From Alphaproteobacteria bacterium (GTDB taxonomy: Bacteria > Pseudomonadota > Alphaproteobacteria > UBA828): a stretch of DNA of 64,000 bases. The translations under genes were made by a program, and so were the position numbers. Under the pieces are notes generated by a model that was not told the DNA's origin, ran no database searches, and worked only from the letters and a program-made list of their open reading frames with translations. Each line of letters begins with the position of its first letter. The stretch's first letter is position 1. Below are positions 1 to 33,271 of this stretch, piece by piece. The stretch covers positions 704,001 through 768,000 of the forward strand of contig CBDCQT010000013.1 in NCBI GenBank assembly GCA_965220745.1. The letters are read 5' to 3'.

Positions 1-830
1 CGGGCAATAACGAGCCGGGCTGTGCCGGCAGGAGGCGCGAACGCGCCGAGGCTGCCGGCGGACAGCGCGGCGGCGGCGACGGTGTCCGGCATCGCGGTGA
101 CCAGCGACAGCACGGTCTCGATGCCCTCGCCGACCAGCAGCGTGCCGGCCGCCGGGTTGCCGAAGCGCACGGCGAGGCCGTGGACACGGCCGAGCGCCTT
201 GCGCGGCCGCGCCACGGGCGCTTTGGCCGGGCGCACCGGATCGAGCCAGGTGCGGTGGACGCCGGTAATGGAGCGGTGACCGGGGTGTTCCCCCGGAACA
301 GGGTGTTCCCCTGCGTCGCCGGTGACGGCGGCGACCAGCGCCGGCAGGCGGCGTATGCCGCCGCCGTCGCGGTAGAAGAGCGAGGGGTGGAAGCGGAGCG
401 CGGGGAAGCGGCAGCGGTGGATGTGCCGGGCGCGGAGATAGGCCTCGGCATGGGTGCCGTCGATGGCGCGGCAGCGCTGCCACAGGCGGCGCGCCGCTTC
501 CGTGCGGTCGTATGAGTCGGGGCCGCCGGCGACGGCCGCGGGCGGCAGCGCGAGGAAGGCGCGCGCCTCGGTGAGGGCGGCGCGGAGCGAGCCCGCGCCG
601 GAGGCGATGCGGATGAGATCGAGCAGGTCGCCGTGCTCGCCGGTGGCCGCATCCGTCCACTTGCCGGGGACGCCGGGCGGCGAGAGGCGGACGAAGAGCG
701 AGCGCCCGCGGGCGCCGCGAATGTCGCCGGCGGTCCAGTAGCGGCCGTGCTTGCGGCCGTGGGGAAGGTAGCGGCGGCAGACCTCCTCCGCGCGCGCGCC
801 GAGGGCGGCGGCGACGGCGGTGGCGTTCAT
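1..830 (-). CDS. Toprim-domain primase-like protein (outer element; runs off the window edge)
   Basis: Manual translation from ATG at 830: MNATAVAAALGARAEEVCRRYLPHGRKHGRYW...VGEGIETVLSL. Clear paralog of 10903..11883. Missing from the ORF track because it has no stop in the window. Confidence 0.85.
   Translation of the reverse strand, partial: MNATAVAAALGARAEEVCRRYLPHGRKHGRYWTAGDIRGARGRSLFVRLSPPGVPGKWTDAATGEHGDLLDLIRIASGAGSLRAALTEARAFLALPPAAVAGGPDSYDRTEAARRLWQRCRAIDGTHAEAYLRARHIHRCRFPALRFHPSLFYRDGGGIRRLPALVAAVTGDAGEHPVPGEHPGHRSITGVHRTWLDPVRPAKAPVARPRKALGRVHGLAVRFGNPAAGTLLVGEGIETVLSLVTAMPDTVAAAALSAGSLGAFAPPAGTARLVIA
277..312. repeat. Two tandem 18-bp units inserted in frame in the primase gene
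   Basis: TGACCGGGGTGTTCCCCC + GGAACAGGGTGTTCCCCT; they encode GEHPVP-GEHPGH, which is absent from the paralog (VTGSDEAVCGV). Confidence 0.8.
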
Positions 831-1354
831 GGCGCGCCTCCGGCGCGCCTGACGGCACCGGCGCGACCGGGACGACGGACAGGATCGGAGAGCATGGGAG
901 CACCTCGCTCGCGGCTGCCGGGGGAACGCCCGGTCCCGGCCCCTCTCCGACTCCTGCCGGCGCCGGGACGGCGGGCGATGCGCGAAGCGCGAGCCTTGCC
1001 GTCCGGCCGGGAGCGGCTCTGAACGGGCTGCAAAAAGGGGGCCACGCCGAAACGTGGCCCCGAGGGAGAGGGAGAGGCGAATGGAGGCTAGGACTTGCGG
1101 ATTGTGCGACTGACGAAGGCCCTGCCCGGACGGAAGCCCTTCATCGCGTCAACCGGCCCGTGGGCACGGCGGACGATCTTGAGGGAATCGCCAACCCTGG
1201 TCCATGTGGCGTAGGTCGTCTTCATGGTTCGTGCTCCTCTGCGGGTGACGGGAGTGAGGGGCGACCTCGCCTCGATCTCCCCTGGGATCACGCGTGAAGC
1301 GCACCCCTCTGACTCTTTGTCGGGACGGCGAGGCCTAGGGAAGGAGCGAAAAAA

Positions 1355-1391
1355 TGGCCGGTCCCGCGCGGGAGGAACGCGGAACCGGCCA
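1355..1391 (-). promoter_or_regulatory. Hairpin downstream of outer ssb, conserved in the inner element
   Basis: TGGCCGGTCCCGCG/CGCGGAACCGGCCA near-perfect stem; homologous hairpin at 10657..10695. Confidence 0.55.
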
Positions 1392-1467
1392 GGGTCAGCG
1401 GGAGGGAGGGACCCGCCGAAACGATGTTGGGAGGGGAAAAGTTACAAAGTCGAAATCGTCTAAAGCG

Positions 1468-1499
1468 AAAGCCCGCAGGGAGTTATCCCTGCGGGCTTT
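1468..1499 (-). terminator. Intrinsic terminator after ssb
   Basis: Perfect 14-bp inverted repeat AAAGCCCGCAGGGA-gtta-TCCCTGCGGGCTTT, about 20 bp past the ssb stop. Confidence 0.75.
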
Positions 1500-1520
1500 A
1501 CAGTTCCGGCAATGGGCCCT

Positions 1521-1816
1521 TTAGAAGGGGATACCGGAGCCGTCGTCCGTGTCGGACGGGGCGGCATCGGCGGTGGCCGTCGCCTCACCGTTGGCGGGCG
1601 GGGCGCCGTTGCCGTTGGTGCCGGCAGGCTTGTCCAGGAACTGGACGCGCCCGCCGGGGACCAGCAGGATCTCGGTGGAGAAGCGGTCCGAGTCCTCGCC
1701 GTCCTTGCGCCAGTTGCGGGTCTGGAGCTTGCCCGAGACGTAGACCAGGCGGCCCTTCTTCGCGTGCTTCTCGAGCATGTCGATCAGCCCGTCCTGGAAG
1801 GTGACGCAGCGGTGCC
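1521..1816 (-). pseudogene. ssb: 3' half of the interrupted single-stranded DNA-binding protein gene
   Basis: HRCVTFQDGLIDMLEKHAKKGRLVYVSGKLQTR...STEI...DDGSGIPF (acidic IPF tail). Joins in frame to 40846..41012. Confidence 0.92.
1810..1816. repeat. Left att core CGGTGCC
   Basis: Identical to 40846..40852; ssb similarity stops exactly here. Confidence 0.85.
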
Positions 1817-2043
1817 TTTCAGTAAGCAGAGGATTCTGCACAGGACACACGCACGCGGAGATACGATCAGGTACGATGAATTGGATGAAAACCGCAGAGT
1901 TCTGCCACTTTTCCGCCATAATGCCGTATCGCACTCCCGACAGGAGCACGCTCCGCTACGCGTCCATTCGACATCAGTCGCTTGCAAGGTGCTTACTGAG
2001 CGCCTACCATGCCCGACCGTCGAAAACTCGCTACACCCGACCC

Positions 2044-3225
2044 ATGCCCAGACGCGCCGAACGCAAACTCTCCAAGCGCACCATCGACGCCCTCGCCGTT
2101 GACGAGCGCGACGCCGTCTTCTGGGACCGCGACCTGCCCGGCTTCGGGGTCAGGGTCTATCCCTCCGGCCGCAAGGTCTACCTCGTGCAGACCAGGGGAC
2201 CGAAAGGCTCGAAGCGGGCAACGCTCGGCCGCCACGGAGACCTCACCCCGGACCAGGCTCGCAAGAAGGCTGCGGACGCCATCGACCGCATCAAGCGCGG
2301 CGAGGACCCGCTCCCGGCTGAGCCCAAGCCCGAGCCCACCGTGGCCGACCTGGCCGCGCACTACATGCGCGCCCATGTTGAGGTGAACTGCCAGCCGGCG
2401 ACCGTGAAGGACTACCGGCGCACCCTCGATCTGCACATCCTGCCCGCGCTCGGGGAGATGGCGCTCGCCTCGGTTGAGCGCAAGCATGCCGCCGACCTCC
2501 ACTACCGGCTTCGCGAGACGCCCACACGAGCGAACGCGGCGCTGAAGATCCTGTCCCACATGTTCGCCCTGGCTCCGGGCTGGGGCTTCGAGACGGGCGG
2601 CAGGAACCCCTGCCGCTTCGTGCGCGGCTATCGGGAGCGCAAGCGCGAGCGCTTCCTGACGCGCGACGAGTACCGCCGGCTGGGCGACGTCCTGGACGAG
2701 GCGGAGAAGGGCCGGATGTCGGTGTACACGGTGACCGCGATCCGCGTGCTGATGCTGACCGGGTGCCGGCGCAACGAGGTCCTTGAGCTGACGTGGGACG
2801 ACGTGGACCGGACCACGGGGGAGCTGCGGATTCGTCACGCCAAGACCGGCCCGCGCCGGGTGCCGCTGACGCCGCTCGTGGCGGAGATCCTTGACGCGCT
2901 CCCCCGCGTGGAGGGCAAGCCCTGGGTGTTTCCGGGCCGGGGCGCCGACGGCCGCCTGGTCAACATCAACGCGCCGTGGCAGGCCCTGTGCGCGCGCGCC
3001 GGGCTCAAGGACGTGCGCATCCATGACCTGCGTCATTCGTACGCCTCGCGCGCGCTGGCGCTGGGCGAGAGCCTGACCACCATCGGCGGTCTGCTCGGTC
3101 ACACGAAGGTGCGGACCACCGCGCGCTATGCGCACCTTGCGCGCGACACGGAGATCGCGGCTTCGGCGAAGATCGGGGCCAGCATCGGCGCCCATGTCCT
3201 GCAGGACGGGACCGAGCCTGCCTGA
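2044..3225 (+). CDS. Tyrosine integrase 1 with N-terminal arm-binding domain
   Basis: WDRDLPGFGVRV arm domain; catalytic TGCRRNE, AKTG, HDLRH, LLGH, TARY. Start placed at ATG 2044. Confidence 0.95.
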   Translation: MPRRAERKLSKRTIDALAVDERDAVFWDRDLPGFGVRVYPSGRKVYLVQTRGPKGSKRATLGRHGDLTPDQARKKAADAIDRIKRGEDPLPAEPKPEPTVADLAAHYMRAHVEVNCQPATVKDYRRTLDLHILPALGEMALASVERKHAADLHYRLRETPTRANAALKILSHMFALAPGWGFETGGRNPCRFVRGYRERKRERFLTRDEYRRLGDVLDEAEKGRMSVYTVTAIRVLMLTGCRRNEVLELTWDDVDRTTGELRIRHAKTGPRRVPLTPLVAEILDALPRVEGKPWVFPGRGADGRLVNINAPWQALCARAGLKDVRIHDLRHSYASRALALGESLTTIGGLLGHTKVRTTARYAHLARDTEIAASAKIGASIGAHVLQDGTEPA

Positions 3226-3252
3226 CGCGGCGTTCGGGGAAGAGGTGCAGCG

Positions 3253-4494
3253 ATGGCGAAGCTGAAGCGGCGGTCGATCTCGCGCCGCACGGTCGACGCG
3301 TTGTCCGTCGACAAGGACACCGTGTTCTGGGACCGGGAGCTGACGGGCTTCGGAGTCCGCGTCTATCCGTCGGGGGCGAAGTACTACATCGTGCAGGTGC
3401 GCGGCCCGGAGGGCTCGAAGCGTCTCACGGTGGGCCGGCACGGCGTTATCACGGCGGACCAGGCGCGGCAGCGGGCGGCGCTGATCATCGCCCGGATCAA
3501 GGCGGGGGAGGACCCGATCCCGGCACCATTGCCGCCATCCCCGGACGGCCCGACGGTCGGCGAGATCGCGGCACGCTACCTTGAGCAGCATGTGGCGGTA
3601 CGCTGCAGGGCGAGCACGGCGAGCATGTACCGGCGCAAGATCGAGCGCTACATCCTGCCGGCCTTCGGCGCGTTGCCGCTTTCTGCGGTGACGCGCGAGC
3701 AAGTCGCGGCGCTGCACTACGAGCTTCGCGACAGGCCGGTGCTGGCGAACCACGTGGTCGAGGTCCTGTCGCGCCTGTTCACCATGGCCGAGTACTGGGG
3801 CCTTGCGGCCGAGGGCGGCAACCCGTGCCGGTTCGTGAAGCCCCACCGGGTGCGTCGGCGTGAGCGCTTTCTGACGGAGGAGGAGTTCACCCGCCTGGGC
3901 CGGGTTCTCGCCGAGGCGGAGACGGACGGCCCGGCGATGCCGAGCACGGTTGCGGCGATCAGGCTCCTCATGCTTACCGGGTGCCGTCGCAGCGAGATCC
4001 TGGAGCTTCGGTGGGACGACGTGGACCTGGAGCGCCGCGAGCTGAGGTTGCGCCACACCAAGACGGGGCCGCGCACGGTGCCGCTGAACCCTGCTGCGGT
4101 GCAGGTGCTGGCGGGGCTGCGGCGGGTGCCGGACAATCCCTGGGTGCTGCCGGGCCGGCAGCCGGGCCGGCGCATCTCGAGCCTCAACGAGCCCTGGCTG
4201 CGGCTTCGCAAGCGTGCCGGGCTGAAGGACGTGCGGCTTCATGACCTGCGTCACAGCTTTGCGTCGCGCGCGCTGGCGCTTGGGGAATCGCTTCCGATGA
4301 TCGCGCGGCTGCTGGGCCACGCCGAGGTGCAGACGACGGCGCACTATGCCCACCTGAGCCGCGAGGCCCTGAATGCGGCAGCGGCCAGGATCGCGGACAG
4401 CATCGGCGAAGACATCCTGCGCGGCAGCGCCGGCCTTCGCGCCGCTGAGAGGCGGGGCCGAGACGGACGCGGAACGGCAGGGGCAAGAGGGTAG
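3253..4494 (+). CDS. Tyrosine integrase 2 (paralog of integrase 1)
   Basis: WDRELTGFGVRV, TGCRRSE, TKTG, HDLRH, LLGH, TAHY. Confidence 0.95.
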   Translation: MAKLKRRSISRRTVDALSVDKDTVFWDRELTGFGVRVYPSGAKYYIVQVRGPEGSKRLTVGRHGVITADQARQRAALIIARIKAGEDPIPAPLPPSPDGPTVGEIAARYLEQHVAVRCRASTASMYRRKIERYILPAFGALPLSAVTREQVAALHYELRDRPVLANHVVEVLSRLFTMAEYWGLAAEGGNPCRFVKPHRVRRRERFLTEEEFTRLGRVLAEAETDGPAMPSTVAAIRLLMLTGCRRSEILELRWDDVDLERRELRLRHTKTGPRTVPLNPAAVQVLAGLRRVPDNPWVLPGRQPGRRISSLNEPWLRLRKRAGLKDVRLHDLRHSFASRALALGESLPMIARLLGHAEVQTTAHYAHLSREALNAAAARIADSIGEDILRGSAGLRAAERRGRDGRGTAGARG

Positions 4495-4508
4495 GCCCGG
4501 CTGACCCG

Positions 4509-5180
4509 TCAGTTCGACCCGCAGCAGCGCTCGTAGATCCGCCCCGAGCCGCAGCGACAAGGCGCGCCGCCGACCGCCTCGAAGCCGCCGCGCGCGGCGG
4601 CCATCCCCAGTTCGCCCCCGAATCCTTTGGATAGCGCCCACGCAGCGAGCGCCCGAACGCAGTCCGGGATCAGATCGGACGCGGACCGGCGGATCTCTTC
4701 GACCGCGTCCTCCGCCAGGTCCGAGACACCCTCGCCGATGTCGTTCATCGTCTCGATCATGGCGAGCGAAGCCATGGCCTCCCCATCGCCGCTCGCCCCG
4801 ATCTGCAGCCATGCCTCCGGCCGCAGGCCCTTCGCCTGCCGGAAGCCCCAGACCCAGGGCTCCCACAGCAACTCGCCCGTGCCCGGATAGAAGCCGAGGA
4901 CCACCCTGTATCCCTGTGGATCGCTGGCGAGGTCTTCGGCCACCCGCCGGTAGTGGTCCATGACCGCAAAAGTCGCGTCCACCGACTCTTCGACATCCTC
5001 CGACGCCCTGTCGCCGCCCCATACCAGCGGCAGCCACTCCGCCGGCCCGACCCACTCGGGACAAAGCACGAGCCCGGCGACGAAGCCGTCCAGCTCGACC
5101 ACCGTCATCGCCTCCCGCTCTTCCCCCAGCCGGTCCAGCAGGTCCGTCAGGAACGCGATCTCTTCTCCCGTGTGTCTCAT
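4509..5180 (-). CDS. YecA/UPF0149-family protein with SEC-C motif
   Basis: ELDGFVAGLVLCPEWVGPAEWLPLVWG, EPWVWGF, C-terminal PCRCGSGRIYERCCG. Confidence 0.85.
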   Translation of the reverse strand: MRHTGEEIAFLTDLLDRLGEEREAMTVVELDGFVAGLVLCPEWVGPAEWLPLVWGGDRASEDVEESVDATFAVMDHYRRVAEDLASDPQGYRVVLGFYPGTGELLWEPWVWGFRQAKGLRPEAWLQIGASGDGEAMASLAMIETMNDIGEGVSDLAEDAVEEIRRSASDLIPDCVRALAAWALSKGFGGELGMAAARGGFEAVGGAPCRCGSGRIYERCCGSN

Positions 5181-5269
5181 GGCGTGGGCATATGATGTCT
5201 GCCGCGCGGCGAGGTCAACGGCGGAGGGCAAGCCGGAGCGCCGCCGCCCTGCCGGCCGGGTCGGCCTGC

Positions 5270-5490
5270 ACAGGGACTTGGATGCGCCCCAGGCTGCAAC
5301 GGCTGCGGTTGCACGATTTGAGGCACATCGCCGCCAGCCAGGCCGTCATGTCCGGCGAGAACCTGCCGTTGGTCGGCAAGCTGCTCGGACACTGCAGGCA
5401 CGAGACGATGGCGGGGTATGCCCATCTTGCGGACGCCCACCTTGTCGCCGCGGCTGAACAGGTTGGCTCGGTCATCGCAACGGCTATGGA
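5270..5490 (+). pseudogene. C-terminal remnant of a third tyrosine integrase
   Basis: LRLHDLRHIAASQAVMSGENLPLVGKLLGH...GYAHLAD with no N-terminal part. Confidence 0.8.
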
Positions 5491-5739
5491 GTCCGCCCAG
5501 CCAAGGGGTTGCCGGATCGATCCCGAAGTCCGACAATCGCCCCTGCGACAACCGGCAGAGACCCGATGTCGGGTCACCTGCTGAATAGAACAGCACCGAT
5601 CCGGCGACGGTTTGGCCACCATCGCCTGGCGCGAATAGGCAGGACTTCTTCGCATTCTCTGCGTGGTTGTCGCATGGCCCGGCACCAATCCCGTGCCGGG
5701 ACACGGACACGATGCTGATCAAGGGAGTGAGAAAGGCGC

Positions 5740-7215
5740 ATGACTTACCCGGATAGAAAATTGGGGCGAGCCGCGACGCTGGCCGTCGCTGCCACGTTCG
5801 CCCTGTCAACTCTTGCTGCCTGTGGCGGTGGCGGCGGTGGAGGCGGACCCACATCGATGATGCCTCCCGGCGGCGGTCAAACGATTCCGACACGGGCAGA
5901 TGCCCTGACAAATTCGGTGACGGCGGCCAACGCGGCCGCCAAGATCGCGCGAGCCGCAGCAGCCCAACCCGCGCCGGGCAGCGTCACGCAGTCCTCGAAC
6001 GTGGACAGCAGAAACATTACGATCGATCAGGTGGAAATCACCGCGCGGCACGGGTCCGGCGGCCCCAGCTTCTCCGTTCGTAACGGCACGGCGTGGTCTA
6101 TCGGCACGAGCGACGGCGATCCCCAACGGATCTCCGGCACTCCGTCGCCGTGGCAAGGCGTCGAGTTGGCCAAGCGCATTGGCGACGGCACACTCTACGT
6201 CGATGCCTACACGGATATCGAAGCGCCCGCGACACGGCAAGTCGGCGGTGGCGACGACGGTACGAGAGATGTTCTGCTCGGGACGATGATCCTGAGCTCC
6301 GGAACCACGATATCCGCCGGCGGCGGAATCTCCGGGCAGCGAGGAACCCTGGACGGCGACCCGGGAACTTTCAACTGCAGCGGGGGATGCACAGTATCGA
6401 ATGGAACCGCGACGAGAGGAATGTGGACGTTTACGCCGGATCGTCCGCCCGGAGCCGTCGATGTTTCGAGTTCCGACACGGTGGCGTGGTCCGGATCGTT
6501 TAACAGCAGTCGTCTTCCGGGAACCCGCAACGGCCAGCAGGGATGGTTCCGCTGCGTTTCGCTGTCGTGTGGCCACAGCACATCGACCGTCAATGGTCAA
6601 ACCCGAAGGATGCTCACAGGGAGTTGGATTTTCGTATCCTCGACGGCGACGACGGTCACGACGCCGGATGCCGACTATCTCGCGGGCGGCGTATGGCTGA
6701 TTGTCCCCGACGATGCGGCCAGCGCTGCCAACTATGAGTTCGGTGCATTCGCCGATGGCAACGATCCGTTCTTGCAGAGCAGGCTTGCCGCCGTCAGGGG
6801 CAGGGCAACCTACACAGGCGACGCGACCGGCGTGTACTCGGCGAAGGAAGCTGGAGAGACTGCCGTCGGGTACCTGGAGGCGGATGTCCGATTGACCGCA
6901 AACTTCGGCGGCGCGACCGACCTCGGCACGATCAGCGGGTCGATGACCAATTTTGTTGTCGATGACTATCCCGAGGAAGGCACATTGATCTTGGGGGCGG
7001 CCCGCATCGGCGCACGGAACGCGGGATTCTTCCAGGGCTCGGTTTCCGACGACGGCGCCAGCGATTCGTATCGTTTCACTGGACACTGGGGCGGCCAGTT
7101 TTTCGGCAACGGGGAGTCGGACGGCAAACCGGGTTCGGTCGCCGGAACGTTTGGCGCGCATTCCACAGACAATGTCGTCAGCTTCGTCGGCGCGTTCGGC
7201 GCTCACAAGCAGTAG
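5740..7215 (+). CDS. Surface lipoprotein with TbpB-like C-terminal beta-barrel
   Basis: Lipobox LAAC plus poly-Gly linker; ATYTGDATG, WGGQFFG, VAGTFGA, VGAFGA strands; two internal Cys-pair modules. Confidence 0.7.
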   Translation: MTYPDRKLGRAATLAVAATFALSTLAACGGGGGGGGPTSMMPPGGGQTIPTRADALTNSVTAANAAAKIARAAAAQPAPGSVTQSSNVDSRNITIDQVEITARHGSGGPSFSVRNGTAWSIGTSDGDPQRISGTPSPWQGVELAKRIGDGTLYVDAYTDIEAPATRQVGGGDDGTRDVLLGTMILSSGTTISAGGGISGQRGTLDGDPGTFNCSGGCTVSNGTATRGMWTFTPDRPPGAVDVSSSDTVAWSGSFNSSRLPGTRNGQQGWFRCVSLSCGHSTSTVNGQTRRMLTGSWIFVSSTATTVTTPDADYLAGGVWLIVPDDAASAANYEFGAFADGNDPFLQSRLAAVRGRATYTGDATGVYSAKEAGETAVGYLEADVRLTANFGGATDLGTISGSMTNFVVDDYPEEGTLILGAARIGARNAGFFQGSVSDDGASDSYRFTGHWGGQFFGNGESDGKPGSVAGTFGAHSTDNVVSFVGAFGAHKQ

Positions 7216-7486
7216 GTCGTTTACCAACCCGCTTCGAAAGCGGCAGAAGGGCAGTCCTGTGGCTGCCCTTCTCGTTTGTCAGCGATACCCGCATTGATGT
7301 GTCATCTCGCGCTTCCTGTACTACCGCCCGGAAGCCGCGCGGCGAAGCAGAGACTGTCTTCACAAGTGCGCGGTGGGCGCTGCCGCTCAAGCGTCGCTCG
7401 GGCTAAGTGCCTGTACAACGGGCTTTCGTCGCCTGACGGATTGAGCGGGCAGCGCGATGGGGACGCCCTGCGGCGTCCAAATCTCA

Positions 7487-7633
7487 CTGCGGATCGCAGG
7501 TCAGAACCTCGGCCACCCGCCGGTAATGGTTCACGGCCGCAAGCGTCGTGTCCCGACTCTTCGACATCCTCCGACGCCCTGGCGCCGCCCCACACCGGCG
7601 GCAGCCGCTCCGACGGCCCGATCTACTCGGGAC
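7487..7633 (-). pseudogene. Degenerate copy of an internal yecA-like segment (4914..5062)
   Basis: Alignable direct repeat sharing CGACTCTTCGACATCCTCCGACGCCCTG. Confidence 0.8.
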
Positions 7634-7828
7634 GGTCCCCCGCCCCGGTCGTCCCGGGCACTAGGAATCGGCGGCGTCAGTCGAACCGCGCGCCGCCGTC
7701 ACGCCGCTTTCCGTCGTTGACGCCCGTGCGCCGCCATGAGCGAGAGGCTGGCCGTGACGCGGGCGGCGGGGGCGGCGCTGCGGAGCGGGTCCCCGCCGTC
7801 GACAACCACCACCGGGGGAGACGGCAAG

Positions 7829-8152: not shown

Positions 8153-8155
8153 TCG

Positions 8156-8977: not shown

Positions 8978-9142
8978 CCGTCCACACACCGCCAGGCACG
9001 CACCGGCGGGTCCGCCGTGACCTTCCGCAATCTGCGTCCGTCAGGGACGTGCCGGCGGTCAAGGCGCTCTTGCGGACAAATCGCCTTGACGCAGGTCGTG
9101 ACGATCCATGAATGTACTATCTACTAGCGTGAGGGAAGAGCC

Positions 9143-10617: not shown

Positions 10618-10656
10618 CGACCCTCCCCGCAGCGGGTTCCTACGCCCGCTCGCCCC

Positions 10657-10695
10657 ATGGCCGGCCCCGCGTCCCTCCCGCGCGGGGTCGGCCAT
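10657..10695 (+). promoter_or_regulatory. Hairpin downstream of inner ssb (terminator or ssDNA signal)
   Basis: ATGGCCGGCCCCGCG/CGCGGGGTCGGCCAT stem followed by TTCTT; homolog at 1355..1391. Confidence 0.55.
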
Positions 10696-10902
10696 TTCTT
10701 ATGCAGCCCGATCCGAGCCCTTCACAGGACGGACGGCGGGGCTCGCGCTTCGCGCGCCGCCCCTCGTCCCGGCGCCGACAAGAGTAAGGAGACGCCGGGA
10801 CCGGGGCGCGTCCCATGCTGCGTCCAGCGAGGTCCCCATGCTCCCCATGACCGCCGACGGTCCCGGCTTCGCCGGCTCCCGCCCACGCCCGAGGAGTGCG
10901 CC

Positions 10903-11883
10903 ATGAACGCGGCCGCCGTCGCCGCAGCGCTTGCCGAGCGCGCCGAGGAGGTCTGCCGCCGATACCTGCCCTACGGACGCCGCCGGGGCCGGTACTGGGT
11001 CGCGGGCGACCTCGACGGCGGGCGCGGGCGATCCCTCTTCGTCCGCCTCGCGCCTCCGGGCGTGCCGGGGAAATTCACCGATGCGGCCACGGCCGAGCAT
11101 GGCGATCTTCTCGACATCGTCCGCCACCGCATCAACGCGCCGACGCTTCGCGCGGCGCTCGACGAAGCGCGCGCCTTCCTCGCCCGGCCGGCCGTGCCGG
11201 CCCAGGGCGCGGGCGACGCCTACGACGCCACCGAGGCGGCACGCCGCCTCTGGCGCCGCTGCCGCGCCATCGACGGCACCCATGCAGAAGCCTACCTTCA
11301 CGCTAGGGGGCTCGCGCGCTGCCGCTTCCCCGCCCTGCGCTATCACCCTGCGTTGCTCTACAGGGGTGTCGGTGGCGTGCGCCGCCTGCCGGCCCTGGTC
11401 GCCGCCGTCACCGGCTCCGATGAAGCCGTCTGCGGCGTGCTGCGAACGTGGTTGCACCCGACCGAGCCCGCCAAGGCGAATGTGAGTCGCCCGCGCAAGG
11501 CGCTGGGCCGCGTACACGGCCATGCCGTGCGCTTCGGCCGCCCCGCCGACGGAGCTTCGCTCCTCGTCGGCGAGGGCATCGAGACGGTGCTCTCCCTGGT
11601 GACCGCCTCGCCCGAGATCACCGCCGCCGCAGCGCTGTCCGCCGGCAGCCTCGGCGCCTTCGCGCCGCCTGCCGGCACAGCCCGCCTCGTCATCGCCAGG
11701 GACAACGACGAAGAAGGCGAGCGCGCGGCTCTCCGCCTCGCCCGGCGCTGCGCGCGGGCGGGCGTCGCCGCCACCGTCATCGTGCCTCGCGGCACCGACT
11801 TCAACGAGGATTTGCTCACCTTCGGTCCCGCCGCGCTCGCCGCCTGGACGGCGGCCGCGCTCGCAGACCGGGAGCCCGGGTGA
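10903..11883 (+). CDS. Toprim-domain primase-like protein
   Basis: GEGIETVLS and IARDND toprim acidic motifs, TDFNEDL; GAGGAG SD before ATG 10903. Confidence 0.88.
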   Translation: MNAAAVAAALAERAEEVCRRYLPYGRRRGRYWVAGDLDGGRGRSLFVRLAPPGVPGKFTDAATAEHGDLLDIVRHRINAPTLRAALDEARAFLARPAVPAQGAGDAYDATEAARRLWRRCRAIDGTHAEAYLHARGLARCRFPALRYHPALLYRGVGGVRRLPALVAAVTGSDEAVCGVLRTWLHPTEPAKANVSRPRKALGRVHGHAVRFGRPADGASLLVGEGIETVLSLVTASPEITAAAALSAGSLGAFAPPAGTARLVIARDNDEEGERAALRLARRCARAGVAATVIVPRGTDFNEDLLTFGPAALAAWTAAALADREPG

Positions 11884-22215: not shown

Positions 22216-22292
22216 ATGGTCCGCTGGTGAGGGCCTGACAACGAATTCCAGCCGGGCGCAAGGGGCGCCCGCGGGAGAAGAGGAGAAACGCC

Positions 22293-23366: not shown

Positions 23367-23401
23367 TCGCACTCGCGGACCAGGAGGCGCTCTCGGCACG
23401 G

Positions 23402-26025: not shown

Positions 26026-26924
26026 CCGAGTTCCACGAGTTCATGGTGGCGATCCTGCGCTCCGGCACGCCGCTGGTCTACGTCACCATGGCGGGCGTCA
26101 TCGCCCAGCGCGCCGGCGTCTGGCACCTCGGCCTCGAAGGCGTGATGATCGTTGGTGCCTGCGCGACGATCCTCGGCATCGTGCTTACCGGCTCGTTTGC
26201 GGCCGCCATCGTCATCGCCTGCGTGCTCTGTGTTGCCGCTTCGGTCCTGCTCTGGTTCGTGATCGAGAAGCTGGGCGCCAACCCCATCATTGCGGGACTC
26301 GGCCTCACGGGGCTCGGAATCGGCGGGACAGCGCTCGCCGTCCAGGCGCTCTTCGGCAGCCTCGCCGCCGTGACCGCACCCTTCGGCGTGCCCAGGCTGG
26401 GCGCCGCTTTCGGCCCCTACGGCGCGCTCTCGATCTTTGTGCTGATGATGCCCTTCGTCGTCTGGAGCATGTGGGTGCTGCTCTGCCGCACGCGCTTCGG
26501 CCTGCGGCTGGCCGCTGCCGGAGAGCACCCGCTGGCGGCGCGCAGCGTCGGCACCGATCCGGCCCGTGTCAGGCTCATCGCGCTCGCCGCAGGCGGGGTT
26601 CTCTGCGCCATCGGCGGCGCTGAGCTCGCAGCCGGCGGCCTCACCATCTTCGCTCAGAACATGACCGCCGGGCGCGGCTTCATGAGCTTCGCCGCCGTCA
26701 TCTTCGGCGCGGGCCACCCCATCGCGGCCGCCTTCGCCGCGATGTTCTTCAGCCTGGTGGGGGTCGCGGGAATCAGGCTGCAGCTCCTGTTCGGCGCGAG
26801 CATCCCGCACGACGTGCTGCTCTCGCTGCCCTATCTGGCGACGATCCTCGGCGTCTGGATCAGCGGCCGTATGCGCGGCGGCGCCAAGGCCGCCACCGAG
26901 GCCTCGGAGCTGCGCGATTACTAG
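26022..26924 (+). CDS. ABC permease
   Basis: LGLEG, TRFGLRL.AAGEHP, MTAGRGF, LPYLAT. Confidence 0.9.
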   Translation: MTEFHEFMVAILRSGTPLVYVTMAGVIAQRAGVWHLGLEGVMIVGACATILGIVLTGSFAAAIVIACVLCVAASVLLWFVIEKLGANPIIAGLGLTGLGIGGTALAVQALFGSLAAVTAPFGVPRLGAAFGPYGALSIFVLMMPFVVWSMWVLLCRTRFGLRLAAAGEHPLAARSVGTDPARVRLIALAAGGVLCAIGGAELAAGGLTIFAQNMTAGRGFMSFAAVIFGAGHPIAAAFAAMFFSLVGVAGIRLQLLFGASIPHDVLLSLPYLATILGVWISGRMRGGAKAATEASELRDY

Positions 26925-26949
26925 CGAGTGGGATCATTTGCCCGTAGCC

Positions 26950-27300
26950 AGACGAGGGGCGTGCGCACTGCACGACAGAGCGGCAAGTGATGCGAAAGCG
27001 TGCGGCCAAGGATCGACGGCGCAGGGAACACGTAGGCGCTCTCCGAGCGTGGCTGCCTCCCGAGAATGGCGCGTGCTGGCGCATTGAGAATGACCCGCCT
27101 CGGTCCGGACTTGGCGTCGACGAGACTGAGCGTGTCGCTGCCCACATCCTGCCAGCACAGGGCTACGGATTCGGTCTTCCGGTAGCCGGTCAGCAACAGA
27201 AGGAGGATGAAATCTGCCTGCCGCGCGCGACGGTCGCGCGTCATCGTGGTGATCCAGCATCCCATGGAGTCGACACACCTCCTCGCGCGAAAGTAAGCGG
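26950..27300 (-). pseudogene. Frameshifted internal remnant of a tyrosine integrase
   Basis: RLLSREEVCRLH, then a frameshift to LLLLTGYRKTE...DAKSGPRRV...YVFP. Confidence 0.8.
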
Positions 27301-27550
27301 GTGAGCGTGGCACCGGGTGGACGTGGGGACCTGACCGCGCTGCCGCCCCCCCTGCCGTGCCTCCGCCCCGCGACCGGCGATAGCCGGCGCCGGCCGACGC
27401 TGTCGATCCTCCCGCAGCCCGCGGGTCGGAGAGGTTCACCAAGACCCTCTTGGCCCGCACGACGACGATTCGGGCGAGGATGGTCGGAGGCGGCAGCGAA
27501 AGAAGCGGGGCATCCGGTGCTACCGAAGCACGAGCGCGGCCAGACTTCCT

Positions 27551-30500
27551 CTACAGTTCCAGCTCGAGCTCGTACTCGTAGGTCTTCTCGCGCTTCGGCC
27601 GCGCAGGCGGAGCAGGCCGTCGATCGGCCGGGGCGGGGTCGCCGACATCGGCGCGCTCCAACGGCGCAGGTGCCGGCGCACCGCGTTCACGGTCCCGCTG
27701 CGGCACAGACTTGGGCTCTACCGGCTGGCGCGCCGCATCGTCCCTGGCCTTGCCGTCCCTCGCCGGACTGTCCGCCGGCGACGGCGCGATGGCTTCGAGG
27801 GCGGCGATGCGTTCTCCCGTCGCCGCCTCCAGGCGCTCGCGCAGTGCGCGGCGGTCGTCGGTCACCAGCTCGGCATGAAGGCGGGCACGGCTGATCTCCA
27901 CGTAGAAGGTTTTTTGGGTGGTCAGATGGGCGTGCTCCGCTTCCATCGCCGCGATCACCCGGTCCACGGTGCGGCCCTGGAACGCGTGCACCGTCGCTGC
28001 CCAGGCCCGGTCGATATGGCGCAGCTGGGGATCGTCCCGGCGCAGCGTCAGAGCCCGGCCGTCCTCCAGCCGGAACGAGACGGCTCTCTCGCCGACCGCC
28101 GACACCTCCGCCGTGCCGCTGTTCACCAGCCCGTGCCTCCTGTCGTTGCGGGTCCAGCACACCCGGTCGCCGCGGCGAAGCTCCATGGCATCCACGGCGT
28201 AGACCTCCACCCCGCCGCGCCGCGCCGCCAGCCTGGCGGGTTCCCAGGCGACGGTAGCGCCATGCTTGCCTTGCAGCGTCACCACGCCTGCGGCGCGGTC
28301 GACAGCTGCGACGCTGATCTCGTCGCCCTTGTCGACCCCGAGACGCTTGTAGCGGCGGTGGAAGGCCACGACATCGCCCGGGACATAGTTCGCGGCAAGC
28401 GACTTCTCGGCATTGGTATAGCCGCGCGAGACGAGCCTCTCGCCATCGATCGCAGGCCCATCGATGACGCCGTCGCGGACCAGGCGCTCGCGGACGATGG
28501 TGTTGGTCTTCTCTCTCAGCGCGTGGCTGGGGGCCATCAGCCCCGTGACCTCCCGCTCTCCGGGCGAGAGCGCAAGCCAGCGCGCGGCGGCAGCGCCCGC
28601 AAGATTGTCCGCCTTCACCTCCGCGACGTTGTCGCCGAGTTTTCGGAAGGCCCGGTGAATGTCGCCGGCGAGGCTGGCCTCGACGGCCTCCTTCAGCGCC
28701 GGCTCGCGCTGGCGCACGATCTCATCCATCACCGCGCACGTCATGCCTGCGGTCTGCAGCTGCGCGAAGGGCTTGCCGGCGTCGACGGCATCGAGCTGCT
28801 TCTCGTCACCCACCAGGATCACACGGGGGATGCGGAGCGTGTCGGCGATCCTGAGAAGGTCGCGGGTCTGCGCGGTGGAGGCGAGGGAGCCCTCGTCCAC
28901 CACCAGCACGGTCTTGCGGAACCGTGCCTTCATGGCCCGCTCGCCCCTGCGGGAGAGCCGATCCTCGGCAACGCCCGCGTTGCGGGCGAGGAAGCCCTGC
29001 AGGGTCTCGCTGGCAATGCCGGCCTCCGCATCGAGAGTGCGCGCCGCAGAGGCCGACGGCGCCAGGCCCCTGACCTCGAAGCCGCGCTTCTCCAGCAGAG
29101 CCCGCGCCCTGTTCAGCATGGTGGTCTTGCCGGTGCCGGCATAGCCCTGCACGCCCACGACGCGATCGTTGTGGGACAGGATCACCTTCACCGCCTCCTT
29201 CTGCCCGGTCGTAAGGGGGCCGTTGCGGAGCGCCTTGTCGACGGCGCGCCCGCGCATGGGAGCAGCACCCCGCCCCTGTCCGCGTTCCATCAGCGCTATG
29301 GTCTCGCGTTCGTCGGCGACAGTCCTGTCGGTGGTGAGCGAATCCCCCGGCACGGGGTAGTCCGCAGCCAGCAGGGTGCCGGCCTTCTCCAGCCGCGTGA
29401 CGGCGGCCTCAGCCTCGCCGATGCTCACCTTGCCGGGATTCCAGGCGAGAGTCGAGGTGAGGAGATCGGTTCGCGAGAATACCGCCTCTCTCTCGGAGAG
29501 GTGCGCCACGGCCCAGGCGGCCGCCCGGTCCACTTCCGCCGTCGTACCAGGCTCCGCCTCCCGGTGCTGGCCTGCACGGGCGAGGGGTCGGTCTCCGTAG
29601 GCCGCCTGCCGGTGCCGGGCCTCGTTCACGAACTCACTTGCGTCGAAGCCCAGTTCCGAGGCCTGCCTCTGCCAGCTCTCGCGCAGGGCGTCCCTGTCCA
29701 CCTCGCGCTTGTGGGCGCGGGTCATGAGCGCCGCGCGCGCCGCCAGATGGGGGTTGCTTCCGGGATCGCCCTGGCTGCGAGCGTCCATCGCCGCCTCGAT
29801 CTCGGCGCGCCTGGTGGAAAAGGCCTCGACGATGGACCGCGATACGGGGGACCGCCCTGGTGCACCCGCGATCTCGAACCGCCCGTCCGCGTGGGTCTTC
29901 TCGATGCCGTAGCCGAGCTCCTCCAGGCCTCTCGCCAGCTCGGCGCGGTAGAGCGCGCCGATCAGCATCTTGGACGCATAGAGCTTCTCGTTGGCCATGG
30001 TGCGCCACTTCGCGGAACGGGGCGTTTCCCCGGACCGGGGCGTTCCCCCGTCCTGACCCTGCACCATGTTGGCGATCACCGCGTGCGTGTGGAGCTGTGG
30101 GTCGAGGTTGCGCGAGACCTCGTGGCGGAAGGTGGCGATCACCGCCTTCTGGTCTCCGGTGCGCACCATGCGGCCGCTGTCTGCATCCATCGTCCTGGTC
30201 TCGACCGCGTTCTTCTCGATCCAGGCAAGTGTCCTGCGCACGGCGGCGTCATGGGCAGCGACGATGCGTTCGTCGCCGCCGATCAGGGCCGCGATGGATA
30301 CGGACTTGGGCGCGGAGAAGGTGACGTCGCGGCCGGGGCGGTGGTCGATCGTACCGTCCCCCAGCCTGCGGCCGAGCCGGCGGCCCGAGCCGTCGGGGAC
30401 TTCGCCCGCGAGGATGTCGCTGAAGACGTCCGGATCGACCGGCCCGGAGAGCCCCAGAGCGTCCGCGCCCCTGCCCGCCCAGGCGCTGGCCTCCCGGTGG

Positions 30501-30589
30501 GCGTCGTCGTCCTTGGCGTAGTAGCCGTCTCGCTCGTAGTAGGAGACCCCCTGGGCAGGCGAGGCGATGGCGCCGATGGAGGCGACCAT
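27551..30589 (-). CDS. mobF: MOB-F (TrwC/TraI-like) relaxase-helicase
   Basis: YYERDGYY, DVTFSAPKSVS, HEVSRNLDPQLHTH (HUH), FSTRRAEI, GYAGTGKT, HAFQGRT; start at ATG 30589. Confidence 0.95.
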   Translation of the reverse strand: MVASIGAIASPAQGVSYYERDGYYAKDDDAHREASAWAGRGADALGLSGPVDPDVFSDILAGEVPDGSGRRLGRRLGDGTIDHRPGRDVTFSAPKSVSIAALIGGDERIVAAHDAAVRRTLAWIEKNAVETRTMDADSGRMVRTGDQKAVIATFRHEVSRNLDPQLHTHAVIANMVQGQDGGTPRSGETPRSAKWRTMANEKLYASKMLIGALYRAELARGLEELGYGIEKTHADGRFEIAGAPGRSPVSRSIVEAFSTRRAEIEAAMDARSQGDPGSNPHLAARAALMTRAHKREVDRDALRESWQRQASELGFDASEFVNEARHRQAAYGDRPLARAGQHREAEPGTTAEVDRAAAWAVAHLSEREAVFSRTDLLTSTLAWNPGKVSIGEAEAAVTRLEKAGTLLAADYPVPGDSLTTDRTVADERETIALMERGQGRGAAPMRGRAVDKALRNGPLTTGQKEAVKVILSHNDRVVGVQGYAGTGKTTMLNRARALLEKRGFEVRGLAPSASAARTLDAEAGIASETLQGFLARNAGVAEDRLSRRGERAMKARFRKTVLVVDEGSLASTAQTRDLLRIADTLRIPRVILVGDEKQLDAVDAGKPFAQLQTAGMTCAVMDEIVRQREPALKEAVEASLAGDIHRAFRKLGDNVAEVKADNLAGAAAARWLALSPGEREVTGLMAPSHALREKTNTIVRERLVRDGVIDGPAIDGERLVSRGYTNAEKSLAANYVPGDVVAFHRRYKRLGVDKGDEISVAAVDRAAGVVTLQGKHGATVAWEPARLAARRGGVEVYAVDAMELRRGDRVCWTRNDRRHGLVNSGTAEVSAVGERAVSFRLEDGRALTLRRDDPQLRHIDRAWAATVHAFQGRTVDRVIAAMEAEHAHLTTQKTFYVEISRARLHAELVTDDRRALRERLEAATGERIAALEAIAPSPADSPARDGKARDDAARQPVEPKSVPQRDRERGAPAPAPLERADVGDPAPADRRPAPPARPKREKTYEYELELEL
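29846..29863 (-). repeat. Single 18-bp unit, inverted orientation, in the relaxase gene
   Basis: GCACCAGGGCGGTCCCCC (15/18 identical to the unit at 30032); gives FEIAG[APGRSP]VSR. Confidence 0.65.
30014..30049. repeat. Two tandem 18-bp units in the relaxase gene
   Basis: GGAACGGGGCGTTTCCCC + GGACCGGGGCGTTCCCCC; encode GGTPRS-GETPRS before AKWRT. Confidence 0.8.
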
Positions 30590-30590
30590 G

Positions 30591-32588
30591 TCAGAACTTG
30601 ACCCAGGGCGGCTGCGTCTTCTTCTCTTCCGCCGGCGTGCCGACTGCCGCCTTCTCCGTGCCTTCGCCCGATGAGGACGCGGCTCCGTTGCCGTCAGGGT
30701 CAGCGCTGGCCGGCCCCTCCGCCGTCTCGGGCGGAGGCTCCGCATTGGGGGTCTCGTCGGATTGCCGCGCGTCCGGCGCCGGCACGGCGCCTTCGCCGGC
30801 CGGGTGTGTCAGTCGAGCCGGCGGTCCGCCGGCGCGGCTCGGATCGCGGCTGTCGTCGGGCCTCGGCACGAAGCGCACCGCGACGATGTCCCGCTTCCGG
30901 TACTTCAGCCTGATCCGTGCGACCGGCGAGGGGCCGGGGAACTTCAGGTAGCCCGACAGGTTCTCAAGACGCGATACCTCCGACGGAAGAACCAGGGGAC
31001 GCTCCTCGCGCCGCGTGCTCAGCGTCACGCCGCCGTGCGCGGTCTCGTAGCTCACGCCCTCCGAGAGGGTCTCGACCTCCACTTTGCCCAGGCTCCCCGC
31101 CGACCACTCGGACGTGTCCTTGTCGGGTGACGCCAACACGACCCGGGTGCCGCACAGCCCCGAGATCGTCTGCGCAAGGTCGCGCCCGTAGAGGTCCCGC
31201 AGGGCGGAGAACACCTGCACGCCGAGCACGAAGCAGCCTCCGAACTGCCGGCTCTCCGAAAGGCCGGGATCGAGGCTCGGGAGCTGGTGCAGGGTCGGCA
31301 GCTCGTCCAGGATCACCCAGATGCGGCGTGAGTCGGAGCGCGACAGCGAGAGCAGCGAGTTGACCGCGATCTCCAGCCAGGTGGAGATCAGCCCCCGCAG
31401 GCTCGCGTGCTGGTCGCCCCGCGACGTGAGAAACAGGCAGCCGCCGCTTCCCTCGCGTTCGATCCACTTCCTGATGGAGAAGGGGTCGCCCTCGTCGGGC
31501 AGCACCTCCATGGCGCCGATGTTGGCAGTCAGCATGGCGCGCACCGAGAGCGCGGTCTTCGGGTTGGCGAGATCGACGATGGACTGGGTCACGGTGCCCT
31601 CCATGGCCTCCGCGAGCTCGCTCAGATCGGTCTTGAGCAGACGGTCCACCAGCACCCGGTTACGTGTCTCTCCCCGCTGCCAGAGCACGGCCGCGCCGTG
31701 AGAGAAGAGCTGGCGTGCGGCGGTGATCCAGAAGGGGTCTGCGGCATCCTTCTGGCGGGGGATCAGCGCTGCCGCCATCGTGTCGAAGTCCAGCGCGGTG
31801 CGGGCCTCGAGGAAGGGCGACCAGCGCGGCGCGCGGTCGTCGAGGGGATTGAGCAGGACGTCCCGGCGCTTGTCGAAGAAGGTTTCGGTATAGCTCCCCA
31901 TCTTGTCGTAGATGACGCAACGCTCGCCCCGGCTGCGGATCTGCTCGACCAGGTCCGAGATGAGCACCGTCTTGCCCGAGCCCGTGGTGCCGGAGACGAT
32001 CGTGTGGTGCCTCTCGGCACCCTTCGGCCAGGGGATGCCGGCGATGCGGTAGGGCCGGGCCTCGGCGGGGCGGTCCCGCGGCCGCAACCGCCGCCACCAT
32101 GGCAGGGTGCGATGCCTCAGCTCCTTCGCGCTTGCCAGCTCGCCGCCCCGCAAGCGCTTGCCGCGCCCCAGTCTTTGCCCCAACAGGCGCAGCCCGAAGA
32201 GGACGGCGGCGGCCAGGCCCGCACAGCCGCCGCCACCGAGCAGAGCGGCATCGACGGCATCCCCCAGCAGGCGATCCCGATAGTCGAGGATCACGGGGTG
32301 TCTCGTGATGGTGTCGAGGGTCATGACCAGGACGGTTCCGTCCACGTCGCGGATCTTCTTGGTCTTGTCGGGCTTGAAATCGGCAACGAGCATGAACTCG
32401 CTCAGCGCGTAGACGCCGAAGACGTGCCAGTCGTGGTTGGTGTAGTCGCTGGTGGTCTTCCAGACAGCAGCGCCCAGGCCCGCGAGGATGACGCCGATGC
32501 CGATCCACCAGCCGAACCTGAACCACGTGCGAAAGCCCCGGGTAGCAACCCGGAGTCCGCGACCGGTGTCGCCGCCCACCCCGGTCAT
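30591..32588 (-). CDS. traD: Type IV coupling protein (TraD/TrwB-like)
   Basis: N-terminal TM helices, GTTGSGKT, IYDKMG, LNPLDDR, ILDELPTL, SRQFGG. Confidence 0.92.
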   Translation of the reverse strand: MTGVGGDTGRGLRVATRGFRTWFRFGWWIGIGVILAGLGAAVWKTTSDYTNHDWHVFGVYALSEFMLVADFKPDKTKKIRDVDGTVLVMTLDTITRHPVILDYRDRLLGDAVDAALLGGGGCAGLAAAVLFGLRLLGQRLGRGKRLRGGELASAKELRHRTLPWWRRLRPRDRPAEARPYRIAGIPWPKGAERHHTIVSGTTGSGKTVLISDLVEQIRSRGERCVIYDKMGSYTETFFDKRRDVLLNPLDDRAPRWSPFLEARTALDFDTMAAALIPRQKDAADPFWITAARQLFSHGAAVLWQRGETRNRVLVDRLLKTDLSELAEAMEGTVTQSIVDLANPKTALSVRAMLTANIGAMEVLPDEGDPFSIRKWIEREGSGGCLFLTSRGDQHASLRGLISTWLEIAVNSLLSLSRSDSRRIWVILDELPTLHQLPSLDPGLSESRQFGGCFVLGVQVFSALRDLYGRDLAQTISGLCGTRVVLASPDKDTSEWSAGSLGKVEVETLSEGVSYETAHGGVTLSTRREERPLVLPSEVSRLENLSGYLKFPGPSPVARIRLKYRKRDIVAVRFVPRPDDSRDPSRAGGPPARLTHPAGEGAVPAPDARQSDETPNAEPPPETAEGPASADPDGNGAASSSGEGTEKAAVGTPAEEKKTQPPWVKF

Positions 32589-33271
32589 TGCGAAGCCTCC
32601 ACGGCGGCAGCTGGCGGAGCGCCGGCAGCGCCCCTCCTGTCATGGACATTGCCGCCGGGAGAAGAGCCGGCCAGGTCTCTGAACCGCGCGAGCCAGCGCT
32701 CTGCGGCGGCTTTGGGCGCGAGCGGGCGAATGGTGCGGCGCAGCGGCGGGAAGGGGGTTCTGCCGCCTCCCACCCCGAGGTCGCGCCTTGCCAGGGTGTT
32801 CCCCTGTTCTGCCGCATCCGTCATGAGGGCGACGAAGCGGAGCACCTCGCTCCAGTCTTCCGGCGGCTCCGGGTCGAGGCCTGCGACTTCGCGCACCGCC
32901 CGGTCGACAGCAGCGCCCAGCGCCTTGGCGCGTGCCGCCGCCTTGGCCGATGCGGGGAGACCCGCCTCTTCGTCGCCGAGCCAGGCGGCACGCGCGGGAG
33001 TGAGAAGTGCGTGGAGCGCCAGGCAGCGGCGGTCTTCGCCGGCGATACCCTCCAGCGCCTCGATTTCCTTGGACATGGTGATCCCGTGCCGGGCGAGCGA
33101 GAGGAAGCGCTGCGTCCGTCCGCCCCAGCGGCAGGTGTCGGCGAGCACATTGGCGATCGCCTCGACATCCACGTCGATGTCCTCGCCCTGCTCCGGATCG
33201 CCGGGCCAACGAGATGGCGGCGACTGGTTCGATGCCGGGCGCCGGCGGCGCGTGACGGGGGAGTCTGTCAT
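32585..33271 (-). CDS. Degenerate HD-fold (YfbR-like phosphohydrolase) protein
   Basis: EAIANVLADTCRWGGRTQRFLSLARH resembles DIAHALS..CRF.GH...FYSVAQH; the HD dyad is missing (ALLTPA). Confidence 0.55.
   Translation of the reverse strand: MTDSPVTRRRRPASNQSPPSRWPGDPEQGEDIDVDVEAIANVLADTCRWGGRTQRFLSLARHGITMSKEIEALEGIAGEDRRCLALHALLTPARAAWLGDEEAGLPASAKAAARAKALGAAVDRAVREVAGLDPEPPEDWSEVLRFVALMTDAAEQGNTLARRDLGVGGGRTPFPPLRRTIRPLAPKAAAERWLARFRDLAGSSPGGNVHDRRGAAGAPPAAAVEASQ

Follow-up and report, generated by a model that had tools for sequence, protein, structure and literature searches.

The 64,000-nucleotide window analyzed here, positions 704,001 to 768,000 of contig C13 (CBDCQT010000013.1) in an alphaproteobacterial genome of the UBA828 lineage (assembly GCA_965220745.1), carries copies of an 18-bp hairpin unit in genes of two adjacent conjugative or mobilisable elements. 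Compared with related elements, every copy proves to be a derived insertion that adds exactly 18 nt and duplicates no target sequence. We tentatively propose, at rather less than even confidence, that the units are a non-autonomous, selfish or neutral hairpin micro-element copied in cis by the conjugative element's own strand-transfer enzyme. Multiplication confined to one lineage of conjugative elements, from sponge-associated bacteria, is part of this best explanation and shares the reserve with which the whole is held.

The genome (G000, 4.82 Mb, 67% G+C, 99.96% complete; the window is G000:C13:704001-768000) was scanned in full with a position matrix trained on 23 seed copies. The consensus of the unit is KACCRGGGYGTTCCCCYG, with the stem CCRGGG/CCCYGG and a loop of 5 nt. 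The scan yielded 37 sites of at least 18 bits, 34 of them within C13:655-745 kb. When contig C13 (1.08 Mb) was simulated three times with a third-order Markov model, 0, 0 and 0 such sites resulted against the 34 real ones, so that the motif stands above its background, contrary to a condition that would have refuted an earlier reading made from the sequence alone. At a threshold of 14 bits there are about 47 units in 24 arrays, spanning C13:662,730-736,806. Therefore, the window holds only the last five of the roughly 24 arrays; most arrays lie upstream of it, up to 41 kb away. The arrays comprise 1-7 units, head-to-tail, with a constant period of 18 bp, each unit inside a gene adding six amino acids that are tolerated. 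In the window the core GGGGYGTTYCCCC (at most one mismatch) occurs 5 times against 0.75 expected, a count reached by 1 of 100 shuffles. At least 20 of the 24 arrays are located inside open frames, in both orientations and in all six phases, and the peptides read from the units by frame include DQGVPL, PGRSPV, QGNTLV, GEHPGP and GTPRSG. The conservation is at the DNA level, in agreement with the earlier reading. A search of 124 kb against Rfam returned no family at gathering score, the unit was not found among the 72,556 plasmids of PLSDB, and the open-access literature searched contained no account of such units in conjugative elements.

For comparison with the genome's own 90 kb, we used ten pieces of 40 kb from related elements of the genus and nine further loci. 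The 115 arrays represent 68 distinct sites, and a gap-free empty orthologous site was found for 66 of the 115, with a length difference that is always 18n. Neighbouring units are spaced by 18 or 36 bp in 111 of 111 cases. Unit length is thus intrinsically fixed, and the earlier suggestion that insertions of variable length are filtered until only multiples of 3 survive does not hold. Nor are the units an excision footprint, as had also been suggested, since target duplication is not supported (14 of 37 matches against 14.2 expected) and there is no larger parent element. At 38 empty sites the position before the junction (-1) is G in 26 and the position after it (+1) is T in 20 and C in 13, giving a G/T or G/C junction identical to that between units (a slash marks a junction here and below). 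Heterogeneous two-unit blocks common to non-orthologous sites number 0 against 0.52 expected, and therefore the single unit is the moving entity. Neighbouring units are identical in 15 of 95 pairs against 1.1 expected, indicating that slippage occurs. Slippage accounts for part of array growth only, and a simple tandem repeat formed by slippage alone was ruled out by the presence of one 18-mer family at 68 unrelated sites. With respect to polarity, the last unit of an array scores above the first at 18 sites and below it at 17; in orthologous arrays the left flanks have 4.9 and the right flanks 2.4 mismatches in 20 nt, which is a hint only, as the 88 pairs are not independent. A miniature inverted-repeat transposable element was rejected as an identity for the unit, since roughly 50-500 bp with terminal inverted repeats and a duplication would be expected, and the unit has 18 bp and no duplication.

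The consensus variants are stop-free in all six frames in 42 of 48 cases; in the other six an A at position 1 creates TGA, and A is used least often at that position (14 of 260 units). Among random 18-mers at 67% G+C, 46% are likewise stop-free in all six frames, and therefore this property reflects a filter, not design. It is the one point in favour of peptides that are ancestral or convergent, or of a motif arising by chance or assembly artefact, which we regard as scarcely credible and as already refuted: the insert is absent from 73 of 80 relaxases, six frames are used, and the simulations gave no site where 34 were observed. Further evidence against this is that the units are found in separate assemblies made from short and from long reads, as well as in contigs from several public runs.

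Copies in the window and their host elements

The four unit sites named in the sequence-only reading exist, with positions shifted by 1-3 bases, and a fifth, weak copy was found at 919-936. The peptides it listed (GEHPVP, GETPRS, QGNTLA and APGRSP) are the actual translations in the gene frames, and units are indeed present in both adjacent elements, here called A and B. The copies, their host genes and the genes at the element border are as follows, in window positions.

1 to 830, minus strand: 3' part of the element A primase, with DUF7146 and Toprim_3 (Pfam, 7.5e-31 and 3.7e-24); the whole gene is G000:C13:703799-704830
278 to 313, plus strand: two tandem units, GACCGGGGTGTTCCCCCG and GAACAGGGTGTTCCCCTG (25.9 and 26.7 bits), inside the Toprim/DUF7146 primase gene
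919 to 936, minus strand: one degenerate unit, GGACCGGGCGTTCCCCCG (16.9 bits), directly upstream of the primase start
1777 to 3225 and 3253 to 4494, plus strand: two tandem tyrosine recombinase genes (Phage_integrase, 5e-22 and 3e-26) with arm-binding domains, at the border of elements A and B
10657 to 11883, plus strand: primase paralogue of element B, with the empty site for the 278-313 insertion
27551 to 30745, minus strand: open frame of TrwC-type relaxase-helicase B (TrwC, 2.7e-80)
29845 to 29862, minus strand: one degenerate unit at relaxase site 2 (16.9 bits), reading FEIAG/APGRSP/VSR
30015 to 30050, plus strand: two units at relaxase site 1, reading ..QGQDG/GTPRSGETPRSA/KWRTM
30591 to 32588, minus strand: type IV coupling protein B (TrwB/TraG-D, 1.2e-131)
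32585 to 33271, minus strand: 228-aa gene of no Pfam family, upstream of the coupling protein, hosting one unit
32789 to 32806, plus strand: single unit TGCCAGGGTGTTCCCCTG, reading QGNTLA

In the primase gene, which is on the minus strand, the two units at 278-313 translate to the 12 residues AGEHPVPGEHPG. The paralogue in element B is 72% identical and aligns with one 12-residue gap that corresponds exactly to AGEHPVPGEHPG, which confirms the absence of the insertion from the second copy in the window; the relative L016 has 2 units at the same primase site. The unit at 919-936 is probably non-coding. Clean empty sites in homologues are likewise found for the relaxase sites and the 228-aa gene, so the units are insertions, as the sequence-only reading held. 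Site 1 of the relaxase, whose start is likely near 30598, is empty in 73 of 80 homologous relaxases, which read ...NMVxGxDG/KWRTM...; it is filled with 1 unit in one relative and with 2 units in relaxases A and B and three relatives. Units, 1-4 in number, are present at site 2 in L051, L052, L080, L088 and the C3:232755 relaxase; the others are empty there, so that the FEIAG/V insert also has empty homologues. For the unit at 32789-32806, empty sites were found in G005_C3b, G020_C4 and L018, with a flank identity of 85-86%. The AlphaFold model of relaxase B has a mean predicted local distance difference test score (pLDDT) of 76. Residues 182-198, corresponding to site 1, are modelled between two strands as a loop at the tip of a beta-hairpin, and form the only long stretch with pLDDT below 50. 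Other arrays are located in C-terminal tails, for instance that of a lipoprotein.

The two elements of the C13 unit region encode type IVB secretion, TrwC relaxases and Toprim primases. Element A is a conjugative element at C13:~659-705 kb, with type IV pilus ATPases, a TcpQ-like protein, DotI/DotH/TrbI-like type IVB secretion proteins, a TrwB coupling protein, a TrwC relaxase-helicase and the DUF7146-Toprim primase; it also encodes S24 repressor-like, helix-turn-helix, zeta-toxin-like and SLOG proteins. Element B is mobilisable and follows both recombinase genes, with the primase paralogue, cargo, relaxase B, the coupling protein and the 228-aa gene. Adjoining it at 35366-39445 on the plus strand is a 1359-aa MmeI/Eco57I-like type IIL restriction-modification gene. 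In element A the frame of the coupling protein (C13:692860-695610, equal to L006:4860-7610) encodes 916 aa, compared with 665 aa for its counterpart in element B. The stretch upstream of it, C13:~692,690-692,860, matches the start of the 228-aa gene (window 33129-33291), and judging from the sequence a homologue of that gene may be fused to the coupling protein of element A, or the start may be mis-called. A GC-rich inverted repeat is common to both elements (C13:692632-692665 and window 33310-33342), in the same place upstream of the operon of 228-aa gene, coupling protein and relaxase. Its arms, CATCGGGGGCCGA-N7-TCGGCCCCCGATG in one element and TGCCGGGGG-N16-CCCCCGGCA in the other, resemble the stem of the 18-bp unit. 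This repeat is a candidate transfer-origin repeat, operator or terminator.

Three strong matches lie outside the C13 region, at C3:233410, C12:31543 and C12:182821. The first is inside a third TrwC relaxase, at the same position as the unit at window 29845. The other two are identical unit-like 18-mers (GCCCGGGGCGTTCCCCTG, 20.3 bits) with identical flanks, 151 kb apart; each adjoins an integrase-like frame, and one is near a TrwC fragment. TrwC matches are spread over contigs C3, C5, C10, C12 and C13, and the genome is crowded with elements of this family.

Turnover and distribution among relatives

Most sites are private, with 48 of the 68 filled in one element only, and the number of units per 40 kb varies between 35 and 0. 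G016, from the same genus, carries an element with a complete syntenic backbone and 0 units. The units are therefore not required by the element. Contigs assembled from other sponge metagenomes, on which this comparison between samples rests, differ from this genome inside arrays, once by 18 nt and once by 54 nt; an apparent 18-nt insertion at L005:4991 (run X1) turned out to be a diverged homologous stretch with no unit. Each of two well-supported clades in the relaxase tree varies at site 1, with 0, 1 or 2 units. The sister relaxases L015 and L018 have 2 units and 0, respectively, and L080 has 0 inside a clade of 2-unit members, while site 2 is filled in clade B and in one unrelated lineage. 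Therefore, the same nucleotide positions have been hit repeatedly, or units have been lost precisely, or both. Site occupancy showed no correlation with unit score (rho 0.09). The variant composition at position 9 differs among elements (chi-square p 0.008, for units that are not independent), and the array at C13:688721 has decayed.

Within the genus, 14 of 20 other genomes contain the tandem dimer, against 0 of 40 from outside, and the reversed pattern used as a control gave 0 in all 61 genomes. The loci returned from the relatives are in homologues of element genes in 8 of 8 cases. A scan of a metagenome collection found 9 contigs with the dimer, 7 of which encode homologues of element genes. 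The loci of 80 relaxase homologues, taken mostly from sponge-associated genomes across several phyla, were also scanned, and a unit scoring 16 bits or more was present in only 10; nine of these are close relatives, and the tenth (L063) has one weak site of 16.4 bits.

A second micro-repeat family, with the 15-bp unit GAGACCCTCGGGCCG, occurs at about 9 places per 40 kb in the element of G003 and about 8 in that of G004 (L139-L142), which contain few 18-bp units. Its copies are tandem, lie on both strands, are polymorphic for presence or absence between G003 and G004, and are followed by GAGA/GGGA, which is the start of that unit itself. A loose search pattern for this family returned noise only. 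The lengths of both units, 18 and 15 bp, are divisible by three. Judging by this second family, in-frame micro-repeats seem common to this family of elements in general. In the window, a variant with a 15-bp period, GAGACACTCGTGCCG, is found at three places:

47467 to 47500, minus strand
50546 to 50584, plus strand
53514 to 53547, plus strand

Other repeats were also recorded. Window 41146-41439 is a tandem repeat of 144 bp (2.0 copies, 84% matches). Local arrays that are not dispersed lie within 40 kb of other relaxase genes at C12:274306-274431, C12:143585-143651 and C5:25277-25436, with periods of 15, 18 and 17 bp. The loci L035, L066, L087, L045 and L046, from other phyla, have CRISPR-like long arrays with a period of 61-71 bp within 10 kb of relaxase homologues.

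Repair patches could also place units in mobile DNA, if breaks made by restriction or CRISPR systems in incoming element DNA were sealed by a standard templated filler and in-frame survivors escaped targeting. Only mobile DNA bears units, the sites are private and recurrent, and an MmeI-like restriction-modification gene lies next to element B, all of which fit this explanation. We consider it highly improbable, as the genome itself has no CRISPR array, the junctions show neither deletions nor variable fillers, and we know of no source of a constant 18-nt filler.

Hairpin constraint and the possible route of copying

The unit is predicted to fold, as DNA, into a stem of 5-6 bp with a loop of 5 nt, at about -4 to -6 kcal/mol. 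At stem positions 5 and 17, the 260 units have AT in 132 cases, GC in 63, GT in 51 and AC in 5; the corresponding counts among 147 distinct 18-mers are 70, 36, 30 and 4, where about 39 AC would be expected if the positions were independent. The matrix gives AC no penalty relative to GC at this pair. Positions 7 and 15 are GC in 239 units and CG in 8. Covariation of the stem, with G·T but not A·C tolerated, therefore indicates constraint on a single-stranded hairpin of one defined strand. As the units are found in both orientations relative to genes, a role in mRNA is unlikely, and a single-stranded DNA intermediate would be the simplest reading.

A hairpin under constraint is also what selected, functional cis-acting sites would show, for instance for hairpin priming by the Toprim primase or for binding of a partition, silencing or regulatory protein, in the manner of iteron-like units specific to a lineage. 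Most units end in CTG at the foot of the hairpin, an ending that may resemble G4-type priming signals. The unit families are lineage-specific (18 bp in this clade, 15 bp in G003 and G004), and near-consensus units are present at a site common to lineages whose flanking gene is only 36-42% identical. However, 48 of the 68 sites are private and copy number varies between samples, the G016 element has the same backbone with no units, and the old array at C13:688721 has been left to decay. Furthermore, the units are placed in coding sequence, in either orientation and in every frame, rather than at promoters or origins, and no Rfam family matches them. Functional sites would still need a mechanism of insertion, and we judge this explanation improbable.

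We propose the following route for a selfish or neutral micro-element. While the conjugative element is single-stranded, during conjugative transfer or rolling-circle replication, one unit would be copied as single-stranded DNA and joined in cis into the same element. The enzyme would be the element's own strand-transfer enzyme, with the TrwC-type HUH relaxase as first candidate and the two tandem tyrosine recombinases as second. Because the unit ends in CYG, usually followed by T or G, its insertion would recreate the preferred junction, and re-insertion there together with replication slippage might lead to exact 18-bp arrays. Selection would keep the copies that leave the frame intact, bring no stop and are placed in loops or protein tails. 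The more specific claim, that an activity encoded or recruited by the element in its single-stranded phase writes the 18-nt hairpin at G/Y junctions with no flanking duplication or loss, is doubtful at present. Concerning the earlier idea of short units being written into DNA, the insertion itself stands, and the writing mechanism is something we infer.

Searches of the genome for known mobilising genes were negative in the neighbourhood of the units. Y1_Tnp (PF01797) had 0 matches in the genome, with matches in 6 of 14 control genomes; the sole match of RVT_1 is on contig C6 and those of Y2/IS91 are on C8 only, all unlinked to the units. No known gene for mobilising small repeats is linked, which fits the undescribed mechanism put forward in the sequence-only reading. 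The master array and the linked reverse transcriptase or primase-polymerase that it had suggested were looked for, and none was found.

Several observations weigh against copying by an element-encoded enzyme, beginning with the fact that the involvement of an enzyme is itself only inferred. Transfer origins of the MOBF type are nicked about 8 nt 3' of a hairpin, and the unit does not appear to match this arrangement. Units are found in both orientations at short range, which is unexpected if the transferred strand alone were acted on. The genome has 14 TrwC-domain matches, representing at least 12 relaxase genes, and units are present in three elements only. In the secretion-to-relaxase backbone (C13:660-699 kb), no gene was found that sets unit-rich elements apart, and a search for a transfer origin upstream of the coupling-protein operon, based on inverted repeats and conserved words, revealed no nick site. 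Homogenisation of units within elements was not found, with a mean of 3.94 differences within and 3.86 between elements. Mismatches between filled and empty alleles reach 0.30-0.43 within 1-2 nt of the junction, against about 0.15-0.2, and the 15-bp unit GAGACCCTCGGGCCG of G003 and G004 has no obvious hairpin and a 4-nt microhomology.

The last two observations fit at least as well with template switching, which would require no dedicated enzyme. A polymerase stalled at a hairpin on single-stranded element DNA would switch template to a unit elsewhere: the nascent end (...YG) would anneal by 1-4 nt of microhomology, copy one unit and switch back, with slippage altering the number of units. This is somewhat unlikely taken alone, and we rank it nearly as likely as the preferred mechanism. 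G at -1 and T at +1 are the unit's own junction, identical neighbours are in excess (15 of 95), and arrays differ between samples by multiples of 18. As template and target are on one molecule, restriction to cis would be natural. On the other hand, the register is constant (KACC...CCCYG) with 111 of 111 spacings exact, and no permuted or partial in-frame copies, which would survive selection, were noticed, though no systematic search was made. In addition, 68 sites seem many if each required a double switch with 1-2 nt of microhomology, identical nucleotide positions recur as targets in relaxase clades that have diverged, and the strand-specific asymmetry of G·T and A·C requires an extra assumption.

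Comparison with known systems and significance

The closest bacterial analogue of the unit appears to be the Rickettsia palindromic elements (RPE). PMC10969869, citing Ogata et al. 2000 and 2002, describes them as palindromic selfish repeats of about 150 bp that lie in frame within unrelated protein genes. Similar to RPE as outlined there, the unit is a palindromic insert in frame in unrelated genes, with a tolerated extra peptide and no linked transposase. RPE are scattered in the chromosome of an intracellular genus, whereas the 18-bp unit is found in conjugative elements only and forms exact tandem arrays. The conserved peptide of a family of about 150 bp has no counterpart here, as the unit is read in six frames as six different peptides. 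In behaviour, the closest analogue may be the mobile G+C clusters of yeast mitochondrial DNA, for which PMC4478555 describes hairpins (GC42 and relatives), single or in tandem, with a putative AG target duplication. As far as that description goes, both are short GC-rich hairpins with rapid gain and loss, single copies as well as tandem arrays, and a stem conserved above the loop. The yeast clusters are organellar, longer (GC42) and mostly in AT-rich spacers, and their putative AG duplication differs from the chance-level matches found here (14 of 37 against 14.2 expected).

REP sequences are introduced in PMC3733652 as extragenic, 20-40 bp long, with a GTAG or CGTC tag, and co-occurring with a RAYT gene. 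By that account the unit resembles the REP/REPIN-RAYT system in being a small GC-rich stem-loop with strand-specific, single-stranded recognition and no target duplication. Membership was rejected on three features, since there is no Y1_Tnp, the units are inside genes and KACCRGGGYGTTCCCCYG contains no tag.

The "peel and paste" transposition of IS200/IS605 elements involves hundreds of bases, two different ends and cuts at a distance from the hairpin. Together with site-specific integration by relaxases, it offers a possible analogy: hairpin-guided HUH cutting and joining of single strands, without duplication and with a short target. To our knowledge, no IS200/IS605-like or relaxase reaction acts on an 18-nt unit. 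Iterons are direct repeats of 17-22 bp, tandem, specific to a replicon lineage and conserved, in non-coding origin or partition regions. The unit shares with them and with centromere-like repeats the lineage-specific tandem direct repeats, but an array of this kind was rejected: the units are dispersed in about 20 genes, in both orientations, are polymorphic, have 48 of 68 sites private and are lacking in G016. A solitary CRISPR repeat or CRISPR-repeat mimicry was rejected as well, as the genome has no CRISPR-like array (20-mers at least 4 times with 50-85 bp spacing).

If an activity of the element does write the hairpin at G/Y junctions, no smaller transposable unit would be known, and the system would amount to a natural "DNA writer" of short inserts, possibly a by-product of TrwC-type relaxase activity or of a tyrosine recombinase acting on hairpins. 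Active insertion would place this selfish DNA near the lower size limit, as one stop-free six-codon hairpin inside the genes of another mobile element, and would point to a precise 18-nt insertion reaction of interest for genome writing. Enzyme-free template switching would still make it an unusually clean natural case of templated insertion in bacteria. The units are hypervariable markers for tracing elements among sponge symbionts, and, if actively inserted, they would show how in-frame micro-insertions remodel the loops and tails of conjugation proteins.

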